Shown here: positions 3,797 through 47,609 of the stretch, in pieces
Layout: each line of letters opens with the position of its first letter
Numbering within the stretch: position 1 is the first letter of the stretch
Assembly: GCA_028692765.1 (NCBI GenBank)
Contig: JAQUWT010000004.1
Location: 405 to 64,404, forward strand
Source: Patescibacteria group bacterium
Lineage (GTDB): Bacteria; Patescibacteriota; Patescibacteriia; Patescibacteriales; UBA12465
Direction: 5' to 3'
DNA: 64,000 nt
Program-made: the position numbers and the translations under genes
Notes under the pieces: generated by a model
What the model was told of the DNA's origin: nothing
The model's database searches: none
Seen by the model: the letters and a program-made list of their open reading frames with translations, nothing else

Positions 3797-3872
3797 GGGC
3801 TTGTAGCTCATCTGGTAGAGCGCTGCATTCGCATTGCAGAGGTAAGGGGTTCGAGTCCCCTCAAGTCCACCA
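3797..3872 (+). tRNA. tRNA-Ala: tRNA-Ala (anticodon CGC), CCA encoded
   Basis: acceptor GGGCTTG/CAAGTCC with the G3:U70 Ala identity pair, anticodon loop TTCGCAT, T-loop TTCGAGT. Confidence 0.92.
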
Positions 3873-3877
3873 AACCA

Positions 3878-3949
3878 CGGGCTGTGGTATAAAGGCTATT
3901 ATACACGCTTCGGGTGCGTGTGATCCCGGTTCAATTCCGGGCAGCCCGA
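3878..3949 (+). tRNA. tRNA-Pro: tRNA-Pro (anticodon CGG)
   Basis: acceptor CGGGCTG/CAGCCCG, anticodon stem CACGC/GCGTG with loop TTCGGGT, T-arm CCCGG-TTCAATT-CCGGG; D-arm somewhat irregular. Confidence 0.8.
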
Positions 3950-3954
3950 CAAAA

Positions 3955-3983
3955 TAAAAAAACGCTCAAAAAGCGTTTTTTTA
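3955..3983 (+). terminator. terminator after the tRNA cluster
   Basis: AACGCT-caaaa-AGCGTT followed by TTTTTT. Confidence 0.65.
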
Positions 3984-4030
3984 TACATTTGCTAAAAACT
4001 TTAAATATCATTATAATACAAAAGTAAAAA

Positions 4031-18868: not shown

Positions 18869-18942
18869 GCGCCTATAGCTCAGTCGGTTAGAGCACAGCT
18901 CTTATAAAGCTGGGGTCGATGGTTCAAGTCCATCTAGGCGCA
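18869..18942 (+). tRNA. tRNA-Ile: tRNA-Ile (anticodon UAU)
   Basis: acceptor GCGCCTA/TAGGCGC, anticodon stem CAGCT/AGCTG with loop CTTATAA, T-loop TTCAAGT. Confidence 0.85.
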
Positions 18943-18988
18943 CATAATATTGCCAAGTTCGCACCTATACAATATAATAAGAAAATAA

Positions 18989-22617: not shown

Positions 22618-22708
22618 GGGATTTATAATTTTTGTTAAACAACTATTAGATTATGCCACCACAGCATAACATATAAACTTATCATAACTTATATATTTTG
22701 TCAATATA

Positions 22709-22880
22709 TAAAAAAGACCGTCTCAAACGGGTAGGCAAGAAAATTTCTTCTAGGAATTACCGAGCCCACCACTAACGCCTGCTAAAAGCGACAGTGGTAG
22801 GCCCAAAAAACCCTAGCAAGAAAGTCCCCATGCTTGTCGTGCCTGACCCGTTTCAAACGGCCTTTTTGTGTTTTAAGCAA
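22709..22880 (-). ncRNA. candidate about 170-nt rod-shaped sRNA (6S-like architecture, unassigned)
   Basis: About 22-bp closing stem (22716-22738 with 22840-22862), inner helices CTAGG/CCTAG and GCCCACCACT/AGTGGTAGGC, and asymmetric internal loops. Three of four non-Watson-Crick positions are G-U only on the minus strand. A U6 run follows on the minus strand. Confidence 0.42.
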
Positions 22881-22886
22881 CCATTT

Positions 22887-22915
22887 AATATATCACTTAA
22901 AAAACACTTTGTCAA
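22887..22915 (-). promoter_or_regulatory. promoter of the candidate rod-shaped sRNA
   Basis: Minus strand TTGACA (22910-22915), 17 nt, TATATT (22887-22892). A perfect DnaA box TTATCCACA (22921-22929) lies 5 nt upstream of the -35. Confidence 0.5.
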
Positions 22916-22947
22916 TAGTGTTATCCACAGCCAAATTCAAGCCCTCC

Positions 22948-38630: not shown

Positions 38631-39659
38631 CTAGTATCTGACGACGAGGTAAGCGCTAGCTGTTTTATATAGCACGTCATACCTAAATTCTACAATTAAG
38701 CTTCCCCTGTCTTTTGTATTCCAGCATTTATAAGCCTCTAGCGAAGGGGCAAAACGCCATTCTCCATCTATTAATTCGCTATTAATACCAGTGGCAACAG
38801 CAAGCCAGCCATGATTGATGTTCTTGCTTATAATTAGTTCATAATTATCAACGTTCCCAACACGGCGCCCATCAATCTTTAAAGCATACGTTCCCTTGGT
38901 GCTTATAGGACTAAAGTGCTTATAAAAGAAAATGGGGACTACCATATAGCTCGTGGCCTCGATATATAAATCCTGGCAAAAGAATTTGTCGTTGATTTCA
39001 CCAAAGCCGGATTGGGTACGAAACCAGAAATTTCCGGTTTTGACGTCATAGTTGACAAAGCTAAAATTGCCAAAACGCCCAATGTTCTTAGTGCCGACAA
39101 ACCCCCAATACTGTTCATAATCGCGGCCAACTTGAACGCCAGCGGAAACAAACAAATGTTCGGGATGATAAGCCGCCCAGGCGTAAACTACTCCGCCGTT
39201 ATCCCAGGAACTATGGACAGGATGGTAACCAAGGCCATAAGCCTCAGCGGTAAACCATTTATTGGCCACCCTCATGCCAACATAATCCCAAGGAATTTGA
39301 TTTTTGCCAATCATTCTGCCAACCTCTCCCATAACCGAAAATCTATTTATCTTGGAGGTCACCCAACCGTCAAAGGCAAACTGATTATTTATTTCGTCTC
39401 CGATTTTTACGACCATGCCGCTTATCTTGGTTATTGAGTCGCTCCAAATCTTAGGGAATGTAACCCCTAAAACGTCGCTAGCGGTCGCCTTATAATCATA
39501 GCGAAAATTGGCAATTGAAGTCTGCACTTCGGTCTTTAGTACCCCTAAATGTGCAGAAGTATCGGCACTTATGGCGCTCTCTATGTTGACCGACTGGCCC
39601 ATAGCTCCGCGACTCATAATGACGAAGAAAGCGAGAAGATGTATTCCTAAATTTTTCAT
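38631..39659 (-). CDS. secreted Trp/Tyr/Gly-rich beta-strand protein of unknown function (342 aa)
   Basis: Signal peptide MKNLGIHLLAFFVIMSRGAMG-QS, alternating hydrophobic pattern throughout, C-terminus ...ASAYLVVRY. Confidence 0.6.
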   Translation of the reverse strand: MKNLGIHLLAFFVIMSRGAMGQSVNIESAISADTSAHLGVLKTEVQTSIANFRYDYKATASDVLGVTFPKIWSDSITKISGMVVKIGDEINNQFAFDGWVTSKINRFSVMGEVGRMIGKNQIPWDYVGMRVANKWFTAEAYGLGYHPVHSSWDNGGVVYAWAAYHPEHLFVSAGVQVGRDYEQYWGFVGTKNIGRFGNFSFVNYDVKTGNFWFRTQSGFGEINDKFFCQDLYIEATSYMVVPIFFYKHFSPISTKGTYALKIDGRRVGNVDNYELIISKNINHGWLAVATGINSELIDGEWRFAPSLEAYKCWNTKDRGSLIVEFRYDVLYKTASAYLVVRY

Positions 39660-39735: not shown

Positions 39736-40881
39736 TTATAAACTCAAAGGAATTGGGTCAGGAATACTTCGAAATCCCGCCTCTAATTTGCCATTTAACA
39801 AGCGAAACAACATAAAATTGCATAATGGCAGTGATGGCATAAATTCTTGCGTTCCGGAAATAGCGCCCCCCAGAGAATAATCATCAAAACTCGTAATATT
39901 CGGATGATGCCAGCATACAGCCGAGCAAGAAAAATTAACTACATCTTGATGATAATGACCTGCGACACCAAATCGTGGCCAAAAACTCAATACCAAGGTT
40001 ACCAATATAACCGGTAGTAACGAGTGACGAATAGCCAAACCGCCAGAATCGAGTCTTAGACGATAATCACTAAATCGCAGACTACTATTGGCAAACTTAC
40101 GCACATAAGCCAACTCATCATCGGCAATAAGAGCAAAAAGATTATGCTGGCGCCGTCTAAATTCAACCTCAAACGCCAGGCGACGAGCGCTATAACGCAA
40201 CTCCCTAGACCAAACACGGCCGATAACAACTGGATAAAAGACCACGCAAATGAAGAAACTGAAAGGATTGCTTATCTTCCAACTATCCTTTTCCTGGCGC
40301 CACCAAATGACAATGAGCACTAGGGCAAGTAAAATATTTTTTAGATAAGCTCGACAAAGCCATGCTAAAAACTTGAATAGGACACCTGACCAATATCCAG
40401 GAACAGCCATCTTTTTTTCTAAGGCCAACCTTCGGTAATAAGAATCAGGATCAACAAGGCGTTCATGTTTGTCGCGTTCCAAACTAATTCTTCCCATTAA
40501 AATTTCATAATCTTTTTCCGAATCATGAGCACGATGAAATTTAATACTGCGGTCAAAGATAGAAAGTAGCTGATTAATAGTTTGGCTTGCCTCAATGACG
40601 GCAAAACGATCAAATTCATTGCGCTTTTCACGTAAACGTATATCGCTTAAGTCAGCAAAATATACTTCTGGGGTATAATTTTGTTCGCCCAAAGATTGGG
40701 CCCGCTGCAACTTTTCATGTAAATATTGCCTATCCGCTTTTCCAAAATCAGGTTTGACTGGCGGTTGAGGACCGCTATCTATCCGAGAAAAAAGAGAAAA
40801 TAAGCCAATATTATAAAGAAAAATTACAGCCAACAGCGTTTTAACGGCCGCTAGCCCAATTTTTGTTTTCATAATATTCAT
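39736..40881 (-). CDS. hypothetical membrane protein (381 aa)
   Basis: N-terminal TM, soluble charged region, then about 4 TM segments; no motif recognised. Confidence 0.55.
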   Translation of the reverse strand: MNIMKTKIGLAAVKTLLAVIFLYNIGLFSLFSRIDSGPQPPVKPDFGKADRQYLHEKLQRAQSLGEQNYTPEVYFADLSDIRLREKRNEFDRFAVIEASQTINQLLSIFDRSIKFHRAHDSEKDYEILMGRISLERDKHERLVDPDSYYRRLALEKKMAVPGYWSGVLFKFLAWLCRAYLKNILLALVLIVIWWRQEKDSWKISNPFSFFICVVFYPVVIGRVWSRELRYSARRLAFEVEFRRRQHNLFALIADDELAYVRKFANSSLRFSDYRLRLDSGGLAIRHSLLPVILVTLVLSFWPRFGVAGHYHQDVVNFSCSAVCWHHPNITSFDDYSLGGAISGTQEFMPSLPLCNFMLFRLLNGKLEAGFRSIPDPIPLSL

Positions 40882-42437: not shown

Positions 42438-42511
42438 GGCTCGATGGTGAAGTGGTCCAACACTGCAGTTTGCAAAACTGCCATTCGTGGGTTCGAATCC
42501 CACTCGAGCCT
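42438..42511 (+). tRNA. tRNA-Cys: tRNA-Cys (anticodon GCA)
   Basis: acceptor GGCTCGA/TCGAGCC, anticodon loop TTGCAAA, discriminator U73. Confidence 0.9.
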
Positions 42512-42523
42512 CAAATCATAAAA

Positions 42524-42561
42524 AGCTTTAGTCTAATTAATATTGGACTAAGGCTTTTTTG
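42524..42561 (+). terminator. terminator after tRNA-Cys
   Basis: GCTTTAGTC...GACTAAGGC stem followed by TTTTTT. Confidence 0.65.
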
Positions 42562-42588
42562 TTTATCATTAAAGGACATACTAAAACT

Positions 42589-42617
42589 TGTGGATAACTT
42601 GTGTTTCCTGTGTATAA
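42589..42617. promoter_or_regulatory. two DnaA-box matches
   Basis: TGTGGATAA (42589-42597, reverse complement TTATCCACA, perfect) and TGTGTATAA (42609-42617, reverse complement TTATACACA, fits TTATNCACA). Confidence 0.4.
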
Positions 42618-42726
42618 AAATTATTTTTTAGTCTAGAAATACCTAGACTTAAAAAGAAAAAATATCATTTATTTTACCTAATATTAAATAATATATTTAA
42701 TATTGGCAGAATAAACAAGGTCAGTC

Positions 42727-42755
42727 TTGCTTTGTCCCCAGATATATGCTATAAT
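42727..42755 (+). promoter_or_regulatory. strong sigma70-like promoter of an orphan noncoding unit
   Basis: TTGCTT (42727-42732), 17 nt, TATAAT (42750-42755) preceded by TGC. Confidence 0.55.
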
Positions 42756-42761
42756 ATCAAT

Positions 42762-43127
42762 AGTTAGAAAAAGTTCTCTTCACTAATTCTTGAATATTTT
42801 TATCGGAGCTAACACGATAAAGAATAGCAAAAATTGCTTACGGAGCAGAAAAAAGTGCTAATCAAAAAGAAGAAAAAGACTTAATAGAATCTAAAAAAGA
42901 AATTTTATCAAGTTTTTATCTGAAAATTAGCAAAATCAATTAAAATAAATAATTCTGCAAAGAAATTGGTAAGAGAAAAAGCTTAAAGTTAGCAAAGCTC
43001 CAAACATAATCCTGGAAAAAGATTGGCAAAAGCCAAAAAACAATTCACCAGGATTGGAGCTCAGACGAGGCCATTATTTATTACTTTATATATTATAAAG
43101 AGGGGCCCGTTCTGGGCTCCTTTTTTA
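42762..43127 (+). ncRNA. candidate about 365-nt A-rich noncoding RNA or long leader of ychF
   Basis: No ORF of 60 aa or more on either strand. Internal hairpin AGCTCC..AATCCTGG / CCAGGATT..GGAGCT (about 42996-43063). Ends in terminator GGGGCCC-gttct-GGGCTCC plus TTTTTT (43102-43126). Confidence 0.4.
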
Positions 43128-43209
43128 TTACAAAAATTAGGTCCTATATTTGCTTTTTTGCCTTATTTCTGATAAACAAATAAGAGTTAGATAATATATT
43201 TTAGATTTT

Positions 43210-44274
43210 ATGTCTCTTTCGATTGGTATTGTCGGTTTGCCTAACGTTGGCAAATCTACCTTATTTAATATTCTCACTAAAAAAAGCGTGGAGGCGGCTA
43301 ATTACCCTTTTTGCACAATCGACCCCAATGTCGGCGTGGTAAAAGTACCAGATAAACGCTTAGATAGCTTAGCGGCTGTTTCTAAACCGGTCAAAATTAT
43401 TCCCACCGCCATTGAATTCGTGGACATCGCCGGCTTAGTGGCTGGTGCCAGCAAAGGCGAGGGTCTTGGCAACCAATTTCTTGCCCATATCCGCGAATGC
43501 GACGCTATCTGTGAAGTCATACGTAATTTTCAAGACAAAAACATTATTCATGTTAGCGGCGCCGTTAACCCGCAGGCAGATAAAGACACAATCAATCTAG
43601 AATTAATCCTGGCCGACCTCGGCAGCATCGAGAAGCGATTGGATAAAACCAGAAGAGAAAGCAAAAGCGGCAATAAAGAATTGATTGCTCAAACGGAAAT
43701 TTTAGAAAAAATATACCAGCACTTAGAAAAAGGCTTAGCCGCCCGTTCGCTTGAATTTGCCGAAGAAGAAATGCCTTTTGTAAAAACTCTTAACCTGCTT
43801 ACCATCAAGCCCATCATCTATCTGCTCAACGCCGATGATTTAGAAAATATTCCCGACATAGGAGAGCTCGACGGTGAAATTATTGCTGTAAACGTCAAAA
43901 TGGAAGAAGAAATAGCCTCCTTACCAGAGGAAGAGCAAGCCGAATATGTCCGTGAACTCGGTTTAAATCAAAGCGGCTTGGATAAATTAATCGCGGCCTC
44001 ATATAAACTCCTCGGTCTAGACACCTTCTTTACTACCGGCCCGGACGAAACTAGAGCCTGGACCATAAAACACGGCGCCAAAGCGCCGGAAGCGGCCGGA
44101 GTTATCCATACCGACTTTATTAAAGGCTTTATCCGCGCCGAAGTGATAAACTGGGAACAATTCATTAACGCCGGCAGCGAAGCCAAAGCCAGAGAACAAG
44201 GATTGATTCGCACCGAGGGAAAAGATTACATCGTGCGCGACGGCGATGTTTGTAATTTTTTGGTCAATCGCTAA
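43210..44274 (+). CDS. ychF: ribosome-binding ATPase YchF
   Basis: 354 aa; P-loop GLPNVGKSTLFN, YchF/Ola1 coiled-coil insert and TGS-like C-terminus. Confidence 0.93.
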   Translation: MSLSIGIVGLPNVGKSTLFNILTKKSVEAANYPFCTIDPNVGVVKVPDKRLDSLAAVSKPVKIIPTAIEFVDIAGLVAGASKGEGLGNQFLAHIRECDAICEVIRNFQDKNIIHVSGAVNPQADKDTINLELILADLGSIEKRLDKTRRESKSGNKELIAQTEILEKIYQHLEKGLAARSLEFAEEEMPFVKTLNLLTIKPIIYLLNADDLENIPDIGELDGEIIAVNVKMEEEIASLPEEEQAEYVRELGLNQSGLDKLIAASYKLLGLDTFFTTGPDETRAWTIKHGAKAPEAAGVIHTDFIKGFIRAEVINWEQFINAGSEAKAREQGLIRTEGKDYIVRDGDVCNFLVNR

Positions 44275-44296
44275 TTTATTTACAATTATTTCTATT

Positions 44297-44324
44297 TAAA
44301 AATCCGCCCCTATGGCGGATTTTA
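44297..44324. terminator. bidirectional terminator
   Basis: aaaaATCCGCC-cctat-GGCGGATttt. Confidence 0.65.
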
Positions 44325-44326
44325 TC

Positions 44327-44887
44327 TTAACGAGATAAAGGAATCATCGGCGGACGGCTTGGCGGCGAAGAGGGAGTACTGGGATTAAGTGTCCCCATGC
44401 CTCCGGCCAAACCGGAACCGCGACGCTCCGCTTGTGCTTGGCTAATAGATACCATCGGACGAGCTGAGGGCCGATTAAGTCCCGGAGAAGAAACGCCGCT
44501 TAAGCCGGAACGGTTAGCCAATTGCGGCTGATTGGCTAAATGCGGAGCTTCGATTTCTTGTTCATCGGCGCGATTAATCTGAGCATGAGAAACATTACCG
44601 CTATCGCCCAAATGCTTTAAAACTTTTCTGACTAATATTTTTTGTCCGGCGGTAAGATTGGCGCTCTTATTAATTTGGCTTAAAGCGCTTTGTTGCTGAG
44701 TGTATTTAAAAGCGCCCTTGGCAATCAAATGCCTAGCCTTATAGACGGCTTTATTAATCGCTTCCTGATTAGAGGATAGAGAATTCATCAGGCTGCTGCT
44801 CTTTACTGCCGTTTTCAACTTCTTTTTAAAGCCTAGCGCGCTGAATTTTTCGCCGCCCTTAGGCAACATGTCAATGGCACCGCTCAT
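44327..44887 (-). CDS. hypothetical protein with Ser/Pro-rich C-terminus (186 aa)
   Basis: ORF only, 10 nt downstream of the methyltransferase gene. Confidence 0.45.
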   Translation of the reverse strand: MSGAIDMLPKGGEKFSALGFKKKLKTAVKSSSLMNSLSSNQEAINKAVYKARHLIAKGAFKYTQQQSALSQINKSANLTAGQKILVRKVLKHLGDSGNVSHAQINRADEQEIEAPHLANQPQLANRSGLSGVSSPGLNRPSARPMVSISQAQAERRGSGLAGGMGTLNPSTPSSPPSRPPMIPLSR

Positions 44888-44897
44888 AAATTTAAAA

Positions 44898-46076
44898 TTA
44901 TTTTTCTAAGATGATTAATTCCCGCCAGACTCTTTGGCCGGCACGATGATAGATTAAAGTATCGCGATAACTTAACTTCACCCAAGGCAGATGGGAAAAC
45001 TTCTCCGGCAGAGCCTTAACTGGCTTCCATTTATCCAGAGCCGGTTTGAGAAACTCCCGACCGAAAAATACCGGCCAGACCATGACTGCCCGACCGCCAG
45101 GAGAGAGAATTTGATAGAAATTATCCAAAGCCTGGGTGTACAGAGCTTGTAATTCTGTCTTAACCGCTTCGATATTATCCAAACCGCGCTGAGGACCGAG
45201 ATAGGGCTCGGAAACAATGGTGCCGATTGTCTTGGGTTTAAAAAATTGAGCCAAACGCGTAGCATTCTTAATATGGAACTTGGGATGGATATCCAAGCCG
45301 TAAAGTTCGCGCACCCATTCTGCGTTCGCCCGACTGTCTTTGACCGCTTTTTCCGATAAATCCGTACCGATAAGCTGCCGATAGCCCATTAGCATCGCTT
45401 CTGTAATAATTGTGCCCGAGCCGCAGAACGGGTCAAGCAGGGTATCGGAAAAATTACGAGTGGCGGCACAATTAATCATCATCTGCGCCAGCTTTGGCGG
45501 CAGCATCCCGGAATGGTCATCGCGCGAAGGACGGCCGAAATCACGCCGAGACAAATCTTTATAGGGTTGAATAGCTAAAGTACGGGCAACAAACAAATCG
45601 GAACCATGGCGGAAAAATATCAATTCCGCCCCTTTGCTTAATAATTTATTCTGACCGACAACGACGCTTGATAATTCTTTATCCCTGCTTGTTACCAAAC
45701 GAGCAGAAATGCCTTTGGTTTTAAGCTCTTTTTTAATATTCAAACCAAGCTTATCAGCGGCAAAACGCCCGCCGACGCCATTATCGGATAGGCCAAATAC
45801 CAATTTCCCTTCGCCACGCGCCGCTTTTTTCACCAGAATATCGGCGCAAATCTTAGCTATCTTAGCAAAATTAGTATCAGCCGGCACAAAAGTTTCAATT
45901 TGAGCGATTTTTAAAGTTCCGCCCAGACGTTTCATTAAACTATCCGCTGCAATTTCCGCATCTTTTTTTACTAAAATACGCTCATTTTCCCAATATAAGC
46001 CCGATTCCCCCAAAACCGATGCAATTTCCGCCACCGACCAAGCCGGGTGCGTACCTAAAATAAAAATATAATCCAT
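44898..46076 (-). CDS. class I SAM-dependent methyltransferase (Trm11 / UPF0020-like, probably RNA)
   Basis: 392 aa; SAM motif I DPFCGSGTI, motif IV-like SEPYLG. Confidence 0.7.
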   Translation of the reverse strand: MDYIFILGTHPAWSVAEIASVLGESGLYWENERILVKKDAEIAADSLMKRLGGTLKIAQIETFVPADTNFAKIAKICADILVKKAARGEGKLVFGLSDNGVGGRFAADKLGLNIKKELKTKGISARLVTSRDKELSSVVVGQNKLLSKGAELIFFRHGSDLFVARTLAIQPYKDLSRRDFGRPSRDDHSGMLPPKLAQMMINCAATRNFSDTLLDPFCGSGTIITEAMLMGYRQLIGTDLSEKAVKDSRANAEWVRELYGLDIHPKFHIKNATRLAQFFKPKTIGTIVSEPYLGPQRGLDNIEAVKTELQALYTQALDNFYQILSPGGRAVMVWPVFFGREFLKPALDKWKPVKALPEKFSHLPWVKLSYRDTLIYHRAGQRVWRELIILEK

Positions 46077-46333
46077 ATATTTTAATAATGCCCTAACTCT
46101 TGCTTTTTTTCAAGCTTTATGATAAGTTAAGAACACAAAAAAATATCTACATATCTTTCCCATATTCTCGCCTCAGGGCAGAATAATTCCGTTTCTTTAA
46201 ATAATAACGGAATTAAAGGTATTCCTAAGAAGCTCAAGATTTCTGAAGAATACTTGGGTTTTTGTTTAATTAAGGCAGTTTAAAAAAATGTTAGGTCTAT
46301 CTTACATTAATTTTAAACTCATTATGCTAAATT

Positions 46334-46858
46334 ATGTCTAAAAGCAAAGCATCCGGACCGAGCCGCTACGAAATGCTCTTCATCGTAGCCAATAACTACA
46401 CCGAAGAAGAAGCAAAAACAATCGTGGCTAAAGTTGAATCCCTAGTCACTGAAAATGGCGGCAGCATCGCCTATCGCGAATTCTGGGGCAAGAAAAAATT
46501 AGCCTATGTCATCAAACAGAATCATTACGGCTACTATAGCCTCTGCGAATTCGATGCCGAACGCGAAGCTATTGCCAAGCTTGACCGCACTCTGCGCCTC
46601 TCGCACGAAGTTCTGCGCCACCAAATTATCAGCATCAAAGCGCTAAGCGATGAAGAGCGGGCAAAAATAAAAGAAAAACAGGCTCAATCCGCGGTTAAAA
46701 ACGAGAAAAAAGAAGAAAAAACCGGCAAAGAAAAAATCCAAAAAGTAGTCGCCGGCAAGAATGAAAAAGCGGAAAAAGATGAAAGTAATAAGGCGGAATT
46801 AAAAGATTTGGACGAGAAGCTGGAAGGCATCTTAAACAACGCTCAAGATCTCTTATAA
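46334..46858 (+). CDS. rpsF: 30S ribosomal protein S6 with Lys/Glu-rich C-terminal extension
   Basis: RYEMLFIV...WGKKKLAYVI...YYSLCEFDA S6 core; 174 aa. Confidence 0.9.
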   Translation: MSKSKASGPSRYEMLFIVANNYTEEEAKTIVAKVESLVTENGGSIAYREFWGKKKLAYVIKQNHYGYYSLCEFDAEREAIAKLDRTLRLSHEVLRHQIISIKALSDEERAKIKEKQAQSAVKNEKKEEKTGKEKIQKVVAGKNEKAEKDESNKAELKDLDEKLEGILNNAQDLL

Positions 46859-46908
46859 TTAAAAATTTGATTTTATAAGCGCGTTTATAAAATTAAGTTC
46901 CAAACACT

Positions 46909-47352
46909 ATGAACTTAAACAAAGCTATGATTATCGGCAATCTGACACGCGACCCGGAAGTGCGCACCACTCCCTCAGGACAGAACGTCGCCTCTTTCAG
47001 TGTCGCTACCAGTCTGACTTGGACCGATAATTCCGGCCAGCAGCAGAAGAAAACGGAATTTCATAATATTGTCGCCTGGAGAAAACTGGCGGAAATCTGC
47101 GGACAATATTTGAAAAAAGGCTCTAAGATCTATATCGAAGGCCGCCTGCAGACCACCGACTGGACCGGTAATGACGGCGTCAAAAAATACCGTACGGAAA
47201 TCGTGGCGGAGAATATGATTATGCTCGACCGTGCCGGTAATAGTGAAAATTTTGGCAGCAGCTCGGCCGCGCCCAGGCGCCAAGAAGAAGAACTGCCGAC
47301 CATCAACGCCGATGAAGAAGAAGAAATTCGCGTTGAAAATATCCCCTTCTAA
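46909..47352 (+). CDS. ssb: single-stranded DNA-binding protein
   Basis: 147 aa; OB fold [16 protein letters not shown], acidic tail ending ENIPF. Confidence 0.93.
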
Positions 47353-47381
47353 AAATTAAACCAAAGACAAAATAATCTTAT

Positions 47382-47594
47382 ATGAACAACAAGAAACACA
47401 AAGACTGCTTTTTTTGCGTCAACCAAATGGACGTCGATTACAAGGACGTCCGCACTCTGCGCCGCTTCGTCAATTTCTATATGAAAATCCTTCCCGGCGA
47501 TCGCACCGGCATCTGCGCCTGGCATCAGCGCAAATTAACGCAGGCGATTAAACGCGCCCGCGTTATGGCCTTATTAGCTCCGACTCATAAATAA
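47382..47594 (+). CDS. rpsR: 30S ribosomal protein S18
   Basis: 70 aa; CFFC...DYKDVRTLRRF...TGICAWHQRKLTQAIKRAR. Confidence 0.92.
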   Translation: MNNKKHKDCFFCVNQMDVDYKDVRTLRRFVNFYMKILPGDRTGICAWHQRKLTQAIKRARVMALLAPTHK

Positions 47595-47609
47595 TTACGC
47601 CGCGCCAAT

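Follow-up and report, generated by a model that had tools for sequence, protein, structure and literature searches.

Large structured non-coding RNAs (ncRNAs) such as OLE, ROOL, GOLLD, and the raiA motif are orphan RNAs of bacteria, often encoded beside tRNA or housekeeping genes, and we know of no biochemical function that had been assigned to RNAs of this type at the time of their discovery. Patescibacteria, also known as the candidate phyla radiation (CPR), represent a large share of bacterial diversity, with minimal genomes and few regulators, and, to our knowledge, almost nothing is known about their ncRNAs. Here, we describe a locus found in 64,000 nucleotides of a Patescibacteria group bacterium (contig JAQUWT010000004.1; this whole 64-kb stretch is called the window hereafter), where a predicted RNA of about 365 nt lies between the genes for tRNA-Cys and the ribosome-associated ATPase YchF. 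We regard it as probable that positions 42762-43126 of the + strand are an independent gene for a highly structured ncRNA of a family not previously described.

This RNA resembles OLE, ROOL, GOLLD, and the raiA motif in its length of hundreds of nucleotides, its multiple helices, its long-range and pseudoknot contacts with covariation, and its restriction to one lineage. Unlike them, it belongs to Patescibacteria, occurs in two size forms, has no sequence or structure match to any of them, and is fixed between tRNA-Cys and ychF, under a promoter preceded by a phased array of DnaA boxes. A literature search found no description of an RNA of this kind, and BLAST searches of phages and plasmids gave no match. 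We would describe it best as a new family within this group of large structured orphan RNAs.

The transcription unit and its conservation

The initial annotation of this region had proposed an orphan transcription unit with a strong promoter, an A-rich non-coding body with no open reading frame (ORF) of 60 aa or more, and a strong terminator. Its limits are the following:

42727..42755, + strand: promoter, with -35 hexamer TTGCTT, 17-nt spacer, and extended -10 element TGCTATAAT
42762..43126, + strand: predicted RNA of about 365 nt, whose ends were placed according to the -10 hexamer (5') and the U-tract (3')
43102..43126, + strand: local terminator hairpin GGGGCCC-GUUCU-GGGCUCC plus U6, an alternative to the long helix H5 (see below) with the 3' strand in common, forming in 12/12 sequences folded (-8 to -18 kcal/mol)

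A direct check of the sequence found every one of these signals where they had been annotated: TTGCTT at 42727-42732, the 17-nt spacer, TGC at 42747-49, and TATAAT at 42750-55 on one side, and GGGGCCC at 43102-08, GUUCU, GGGCUCC at 43114-20, and U6 at 43121-26 on the other, the latter 83 nt before the ATG of ychF at 43210. The strength attributed to the promoter would come from its perfect extended -10 element (TGCTATAAT), which is present, or one mismatch off, in 19/20 of the long-form homologs described below, whereas the -35 hexamer agrees with only 3/6 positions of the TTGACA consensus, which explains why a consensus scanner did not list this promoter. In most of the other clade, the promoter reads TTGACC-17-TGCTATAAT. 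The terminator was also missed by the scanner, apparently because the A/U extension that it applies consumes the U-run. A GC-rich stem followed by a U-tract is found in every aligned sequence of both size forms.

Loci with this architecture come in a long form of 330-385 nt, such as that of the window, and a short form of about 180 nt, which is probably homologous. At least 20 distinct long-form loci were found in Patescibacteria (nhmmer E-values of 7e-10 to 1e-78), at least 12 of them with an RNA profile among genome and metagenome loci, and 8 more through look-ups anchored on YchF. This distribution is a lower bound: a scan of metagenomes with a degenerate DNA pattern gave at least 120 matches, and among those listed, most of them due to chance, at least 7 loci are true homologs. 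The short form is known from 5 genomes: a Falkowbacteria genome (L008, positions 3808-4003) and four relatives (L213-L216). In the nearest relative of the window, the whole spacer from tRNA-Cys to ychF is 88% identical, and in the next one 69%, with recognisable blocks persisting in this spacer in farther relatives; the closest YchF proteins are those of metagenome-assembled genomes (MAGs) of the Parcubacteria/Falkowbacteria type. The family is restricted to one Patescibacteria clade, as nhmmer did not find the RNA upstream of 75 more distant ychF loci. The window holds a single copy, with these neighbours:

42438..42512, + strand: tRNA-Cys (GCA), the upstream neighbour in 24/25 family loci
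43210..44274, + strand: ychF (ribosome-associated ATPase), the downstream neighbour in 25/25 loci

All 20 long-form homologs sit between the DnaA-box block and ychF, and 19/20 show the same order: first tsaD or another gene, next tRNA-Cys and a conserved block of DNA, and then the promoter, the RNA, and ychF. In the remaining locus (L209), an unrelated gene on the opposite strand takes the place of tsaD and tRNA-Cys, and the boxes, palindrome, promoter, RNA, and ychF are still found together. The annotated idea of a discrete, structured, non-coding unit is thus borne out by the promoter, body, and terminator being kept together in the 20 long-form loci.

The absence of a long reading frame also holds: no ORF of 60 aa or more exists on either strand of 42762-43127, the longest having 23 and 49 aa on the + strand and 35 and 29 aa on the - strand. 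We give hardly any credit to a reading of the unit as a pseudogene in decay, or as the mRNA of a very small protein or several of them. The short ORFs of the window copy (23 aa from TTG 42790 and 49 aa from TTG 43023) would be the candidates, but across the 20 homologs the longest ORFs vary in strand, frame, start codon, length, and position, so that the conserved small ORF that the initial annotation had named as a possible refutation was not found. Moreover, the short frames are broken by indels between close relatives, and the substitutions follow base pairing instead of codon periodicity.

The sequence folds far better than chance, with z=-6.95 on the + strand and z=-5.47 on the - strand with respect to shuffled sequence, and z=-4.2 for the hairpin of the initial annotation alone. 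No known family accounts for this fold. A cmscan search of Rfam, at gathering score and at E<=10, with positions 42500-43250 and 7 homolog loci found nothing but tRNAs and spurious, terminator-driven matches (snoR03, STnc430, and L20_leader at 17-23 bits), which agrees with the annotated lack of a recognised family.

A highly diverged housekeeping RNA invisible to the Rfam models, be it RNase P RNA, 6S RNA, transfer-messenger RNA (tmRNA), or signal recognition particle (SRP) RNA, would fit the size of 330-375 nt, the strong promoter, and the neighbourhood of translation genes (tsaD, tRNAs, rpsF-ssb-rpsR, and efp). Of these, RNase P RNA is similar to this RNA in length and shares with it a long-range pseudoknot, strong expression signals, and the proximity to tRNA and translation genes. 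All four types need 5' and 3' ends that pair with each other, a feature missing here: the 5' end pairs about 200 nt downstream and the 3' end lies in a helix of its own. There is also no P1 helix joining the ends, no P4 helix, no CR-I or CR-V, and neither GAGGAAAGUCC nor GGCUUA, nor an ACAGAA..GGCUUA-type conserved region, in the alignment, and the pseudoknot joins a hairpin loop to a linker, contrary to that of RNase P RNA. These differences argue that the RNA is not RNase P RNA. Read by eye, ACAUAAUCCUGG resembles CR-V in the window copy, but it is not conserved in the other sequences. CPR RNase P RNAs are diverged and can, and often do, fall below Rfam cut-offs (Lui et al. 2021, PMC8172020), but the same study recovered canonical RNase P RNA features in all of its CPR genomes. 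In our case, the 751-nt search with relaxed filters and the 7 homolog loci gave no match at E<=10 to RNase P RNA (RF00010/RF00011), tmRNA, 6S RNA, or SRP RNA; ARAGORN found no tmRNA in the window; the ends are unpaired and the apex of helix H4 is variable, against 6S and SRP RNA; and the family is confined to a single Patescibacteria clade. The initial annotation, which had looked for tmRNA, RNase P, and SRP hallmarks in vain, was right in this respect, and we consider a housekeeping RNA highly improbable.

Fold of the RNA and its two 3' pairings

The structure was derived from RNAalifold and from explicit pair counts in alignments of 12 and 20 long-form sequences. With 12 sequences, 92.4% of the alignment cells were paired, vs 32-48% when the partners were slid by 1-3 columns, and 30 pairs showed compensatory changes, vs 3-8 when slid. 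The comparison of the tRNA-Cys to ychF spacer among relatives that had been suggested as a check therefore supports the fold, whose elements are given below with the pair counts of the 20-sequence alignment.

42773..42791, + strand: P1 5' strand (GUUCUCUU.ACUAAUUCUU), pairing with 42960-42977; it beats shuffles in 18/20 sequences and shows compensatory changes
42800..42820, + strand: H2 hairpin, with a 6-bp stem and the 9-nt loop GAGCUAACA; compensatory change in 6/6 pairs, 100% of cells paired
42808..42813, + strand: pseudoknot 5' strand GCUAAC, in the H2 loop, pairing with GUUAGC 42988-42993; 5/6 positions covary, 98% of cells paired (98-100%)
42845..42850, + strand: P2a 5' strand GCAGAA, pairing with UUCUGC 42953-42958 at the base of the long arm; it beats shuffles in 16/20 sequences
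42856..42932, + strand: P3 (UGCUAAU / AUUAGCA) around the AU-rich hairpin H3 (42877-42917), whose apical loop is A-rich and conserved
42960..42977, + strand: P1 3' strand (AAGAAAUUGGUAAGAGAA), partner of the P1 5' strand
42988..42993, + strand: pseudoknot 3' strand GUUAGC, within the conserved linker UUAAAGUUAGCAAAG, just after P1
42996..43061, + strand: hairpin of the initial annotation, made of the outer stem AGCUCC/GGAGCU (42996-43001 with 43056-61), the H4 inner stem, and the cap (43023-36)
43008-15 with 43048-55, + strand: H4 inner stem AAUCCUGG/CCAGGAUU; compensatory change in 7/8 pairs, 93% of cells paired
43056..43120, + strand: H5, the long 3' helix, with GGAGCUCAGAC.AGGCC (43056-72) paired with GGCCC.GUUCUGGGCUCC (43104-20) and an AU-rich inner extension (43074-43100); compensatory change in 10/16 pairs, 94% of cells paired

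In the 5' domain, P1, H2, and the long arm P2a-P3-H3 meet at a three-way junction, and a pseudoknot locks the whole. P1 is a bipartite helix that joins the 5' end of the RNA to a strand about 190 nt downstream, as supported by the 12-sequence alignment and by duplex and shuffle tests, and P2a continues from it into the long arm. The pseudoknot, of 6 bp, links the H2 loop with a segment that lies about 180 nt further downstream, and its two strands change together across the family: GCUAAC/GUUAGC, GCUAGC/GCUAGC, ACUGAC/GUCAGU, GUUGAC/GUCAAC, GCUUAC/GUAAGC, GCUAGU/ACUAGC, and GUUAGU/ACUAAC, to which a swapped-type pair, GUUAGA/UCUAAC, read by eye in L208, can be added. The three-way junction and this long-range pseudoknot, which dominate the fold, had gone unnoticed in the initial annotation, as had the DnaA-box array, which lies upstream of the coordinates that it covered. 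The G.U pairs found in all sequences are preserved on the + strand only, which identifies this strand as the one of the RNA.

In the 3' domain, the bipartite hairpin that had been annotated is present in sequence, and both its inner stem (H4) and its outer stem are well founded, the latter with a shuffle fraction of <=0.05 in 15/20 sequences and changes in step in L203 (AGCCUC:GGGGCU). By contrast, its cap, UUGGC-AAAA-GCCAA, is not conserved, the apex of H4 being variable, and its outer stem is in competition with the base of H5, which covaries better. It is H5 that forms the main 3' helix; it covaries strongly, including at positions that lie in the loop of the local terminator hairpin, and it ends in the U-tract. 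The GGAGCUC strand may thus pair upstream, extending H4, or downstream, forming the base of H5, which excludes the outer stem; both pairings are conserved. The minimum-energy fold of every 3' domain consists of H4 plus H5. When the outer stem is present instead, the 3' strand is nevertheless taken up by the local hairpin in 12/12 long-form sequences folded. We are thus facing a conserved two-state 3' element in which a hairpin precedes the U-tract in either state, and no sequence that would free the 3' strand before the U-tract was found in those 12 sequences.

As for the GCAAA motifs that had been seen to recur in the body, they are mostly the 3' strands of conserved helices (UUCUGC, AUUAGC, and GUUAGC) followed by A-rich linkers, and the A-richness itself is expected from unpaired regions in an AT-rich genome. 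A K-turn in the H5 internal loop, CsrA-binding GGA sites, and Hfq-binding ARN motifs in the A-rich linkers were also considered by eye, without specific support for any of them.

The short form keeps the same plan in about half of the length. In L008, P1 is accompanied by a hairpin with the loop GCUGAU, to which AUCAGC, right behind P1, is paired; the second arm is short, H4 is long, and a GC-rich hairpin stands at the end. The four relatives of L008 share this plan. The pseudoknot of the short form covaries too (GCUGAC/GUCAGC and ACUGAC/GUCAGU), and the 194-nt tRNA-Cys to ychF spacer of L008 folds with z=-7.05. The base of its H4 corresponds to the outer stem of the long form, and its terminal hairpin to the base of H5.

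DNA elements upstream of the promoter

Two conserved DNA elements precede the promoter:

42589..42617, - strand: DnaA-box array, consisting of the perfect box TTATCCACA (42589-97), a weak box (42600-08, 5/9), and TTATACACA (42609-17), in one orientation throughout, by consensus match
42630..42649, no strand assigned: inverted repeat AGTCTAG-N6-CTAGACT (family consensus TTAAGTCYA-N8-TRGACTTAA), a candidate operator

The perfect and near-perfect boxes are 20 bp apart, and the weak one lies 2 bp past the perfect box. TGTGGATA is found in 20/20 long-form loci, followed by A in 19/20. From the first box to the -10 hexamer, the distance is 159-161 bp in 13 sequences, 169-172 bp in 4, and 181-182 bp in 2, with no other values, so that it grows by steps of about 10.5 bp. 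These steps of one and two helical turns argue that the DnaA-box block controls this promoter, and conserved consensus boxes in a fixed relation to it are what would be expected of a DnaA-regulated promoter. The palindrome is followed by an AT-rich spacer, and in many relatives a third half-site, AAGTCCACAATA, adjoins the -35 hexamer. In one relative (L135), the half-site motif (TTTAAGTCTAG, TTTAAGT) recurs 25 nt before the ychF ATG, and hence the same DNA-binding factor may act on ychF too.

The array has parallels in other bacteria. TTATACACA is a listed DnaA-box variant in Bacillus subtilis (PMC2533591), where the consensus TTATCCACA is also used and one conserved DnaA-box cluster is found, as here, near tsaD (gcp), whereas the weak box 2 bp from the perfect one recalls the double boxes of Escherichia coli, whose DnaA prefers box pairs 2-3 bp apart (PMC11317965). 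Contrary to known DnaA-controlled promoters, the boxes lie about 130 bp upstream of the -35 hexamer instead of covering the promoter, a separate palindrome comes with them, and the target, on a binding predicted here from sequence, would be an ncRNA gene. A precedent for an ncRNA promoter tied to the replication or cell-cycle machinery is CcnA of Caulobacter, whose transcription is set by a cell-cycle master regulator (PMC8959179). CcnA, encoded at the origin and under the control of CtrA, is a short sRNA that works by base pairing, whereas the RNA described here is large, highly structured, and not at a strand-switch point.

The functional element of the locus could instead be the DNA itself, that is, a replication origin or a locus that titrates or reactivates DnaA, the transcript being secondary. 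Models for the latter are datA, DARS, and the DnaA-box clusters of Bacillus. The conservation of the boxes in 20/20 long-form loci, together with the AT-rich stretch behind them, would suit such an element, as would the Bacillus cluster downstream of gcp (tsaD), described as having no known role (PMC2533591). However, the array has only two or three boxes, the helically phased distance speaks for control of the promoter, genomes with the short form have the RNA but no boxes, and a function in DNA leaves the extensive compensatory changes of the RNA body unexplained. An origin (oriC) in particular was considered and discarded: the raw GC skew changes slope near 42-43 kb, but the gene-strand-controlled skew at third codon positions (GC3 skew) does not flip at 42.6 kb, where it goes from -0.33 to -0.26 in + strand genes and from -0.03 to -0.01 in - strand genes, which indicates that there is no replication strand switch at this point. 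No oriC-type cluster of DnaA boxes was found at a change of skew sign, nor was any dnaA signature in the 64-kb window. We thus deem a DNA element very unlikely.

Two further observations in the window touch on these subjects. Between 58000 and 62000, approximately, GC content is 0.33-0.35, the GC3 skew of the last three ORFs is reversed in sign with respect to the rest, and AT skew flips too, which could reflect a replication strand switch or foreign DNA. On the other hand, a second candidate ncRNA gene is found at 22700-22930 (- strand), in the gap between two minus-strand ORFs, with a promoter TTGACA-17-TATATT, a long rod-like hairpin of about 185 nt (minimum free energy of -85.9 kcal/mol, z=-9.13), and GACGGUCUUUUUU at its end. 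The only other perfect DnaA box of the window (TGTGGATAAC, 22921-29) lies 4 nt upstream of the -35 hexamer of this candidate, and therefore both perfect DnaA boxes of the 64 kb precede putative ncRNA promoters, in the same orientation. Rfam gave no match for 22700-22930 at E<=10; the rod could be a 6S-like RNA.

Stand-alone RNA, leader of ychF, or partner of YchF

The initial annotation had left open whether the unit is a stand-alone ncRNA or an unusually long attenuating leader of ychF, and the latter remains the main rival of an independent ncRNA gene. Terminator-type leaders, such as T-box elements, the Bacillus L20 leader (RF00558), and riboswitches, are located upstream of a single gene in the same orientation, end in an intrinsic terminator, and have one strand with two conserved, mutually exclusive partners, and all of this is true of our RNA. 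According to this alternative, the RNA would be a cis-acting attenuator or autoregulatory element of ychF, transcribed from the strong promoter or, in the short form, from that of tRNA-Cys, and transcription would get as far as ychF only upon failure of the terminator. The role of antiterminator, against the base of H5, would fall to the outer stem AGCUCC:GGAGCU, with a bound factor, possibly YchF, choosing between the two pairings.

Several observations weigh against an independent gene, most of them in favour of this leader. The RNA is directly upstream of and co-oriented with ychF in 25/25 loci, including the rearranged L209 and both size forms, and this strict linkage keeps the leader option alive. 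The conserved and mutually exclusive pairings of the GGAGCUC strand resemble an expression platform. The short form starts 2-5 nt past tRNA-Cys and has neither a promoter of its own nor DnaA boxes, and only some 12-24 nt separate the end of its 3' hairpin from the ychF ATG. The two forms would be equivalent by architecture, position, and shared loop and partner motifs, but their profiles barely link them, that of the short form detecting long forms with E=0.02 at best. Moreover, both ends of the RNA are predictions, the binding of DnaA is predicted from consensus match and conservation, and the few invariant unpaired bases are A/U-rich and hence say little on function. The weak resemblance to the L20 leader, at 17 bits in the window and 22.6 bits in L135, would also speak for a leader.

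What tips the balance is the predicted behaviour of the terminator and of ychF. In a leader of this kind, one of the two conformations should lack the terminator hairpin, whereas here it can form in both of them: as seen above, the outer stem excludes the base of H5, but the local hairpin closes before the U-tract even then in the 12 sequences folded, and the short form shows no overlap between H4 and its terminal hairpin. In addition, ychF seems to have a promoter of its own:

43173..43200, + strand: promoter-like site for ychF (TAAACA-16-TATATT), whose -10 hexamer ends 10 nt before the ATG

A -10-like hexamer at a distance typical of leaderless genes precedes ychF in 17/25 loci, vs a background of 17%, with TGCTATATT 9 nt before the ATG in L147 and L207. 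A leader would instead be expected before a gene with no promoter of its own, even if this element is a predicted one. Most mRNAs of this organism appear to be leaderless, since a Shine-Dalgarno-like motif precedes only 2/43 of the window ORFs of at least 150 aa, and many window genes show, by eye, a TATAAT-like box 6-10 nt before the ATG; a 365-nt leader would be exceptional in such a genome. The spacer between RNA and ychF, of 28-131 nt, is not conserved, the junctions have few invariant bases, contrary to ligand-binding aptamers, no T-box or specifier features are present, and the L20-leader scores of 17-23 bits are far below the gathering threshold of 58.7. With a terminator that appears constitutive and a downstream gene that has its own promoter-like element, we favour the stand-alone RNA and consider the leader a possible but considerably less likely explanation. 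The conserved promoter and intrinsic terminator around the body (with the extended -10 element in 19/20 long-form loci), and a structure with compensatory changes and no conserved ORF, are what a stand-alone ncRNA gene requires.

As an independent gene product, the RNA would be released at its own terminator, and by analogy with other large structured bacterial RNAs we infer that it may act in trans, not through antisense pairing but as a folded, probably protein-bound particle whose level would be set by DnaA. Antisense pairing to the start region of ychF was considered and set aside, as the spacers are too variable to support it. In L008, the 5' strand of H4 (GGGAUUAA) has a second complement, UUAAUCCC, immediately ahead of the ychF ATG. 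Synthesis of the RNA would be controlled by DnaA and by a palindrome-binding factor, a control that would tie its level to replication or growth status, and some functional connection with YchF or with translation may underlie its invariable place beside ychF.

A more specific proposal would be that of a DnaA-gated regulatory particle working with YchF and coupling replication state to global translation, an idea that we put forward as speculative and improbable. Made in proportion to DnaA status, the RNA would use its conserved 3' switch and its A-rich loops to bind or sequester YchF or the ribosome, and the partnership would have left its mark on the genome in the pairing of RNA and ychF, fixed in both size forms. 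Where almost all mRNAs are leaderless and devoid of Shine-Dalgarno motifs, YchF could hold a central position in control; in this regard, PMC9031893 cites Landwehr et al. 2021 for the inhibition of leaderless translation by YchF in E. coli. If true, this mechanism would couple the replication state of the cell to its global translation.

Whatever its mode of action, a pseudoknotted RNA of 330-385 nt retained in a streamlined genome, with a reduced form of 180 nt that keeps the same core, very likely does something important. The locus is directly testable, thanks to its defined fold with a two-state 3' element, its partnership with ychF and tRNA-Cys, and its helically phased DnaA-box promoter, which suggests an unexplored link from the replication initiator to RNA-based control. 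Structural studies of large RNAs also gain a new target in it, and it can serve as a marker when Patescibacteria genomes are annotated.

Some minor features of the surroundings deserve mention. At 18869-18943, ARAGORN calls a tRNA-Ile with the anticodon UAU, an unusual finding, as AUA is normally read in bacteria by a CAU tRNA carrying lysidine. The window (43210-47600) and its relatives share the gene order ychF, rpsF, ssb, rpsR, efp, which recalls the yyaF(ychF)-rpsF-ssbA-rpsR region near oriC of B. subtilis. Three nearby ORFs on the - strand have no Pfam match (44327-44887, 38631-39659, and 39736-40881), and one of them, a low-complexity ORF of 186 aa located between ychF and an RlmK/L-like methyltransferase gene, has an unannotated counterpart of similar size in the same place in L201, L203, and L205.

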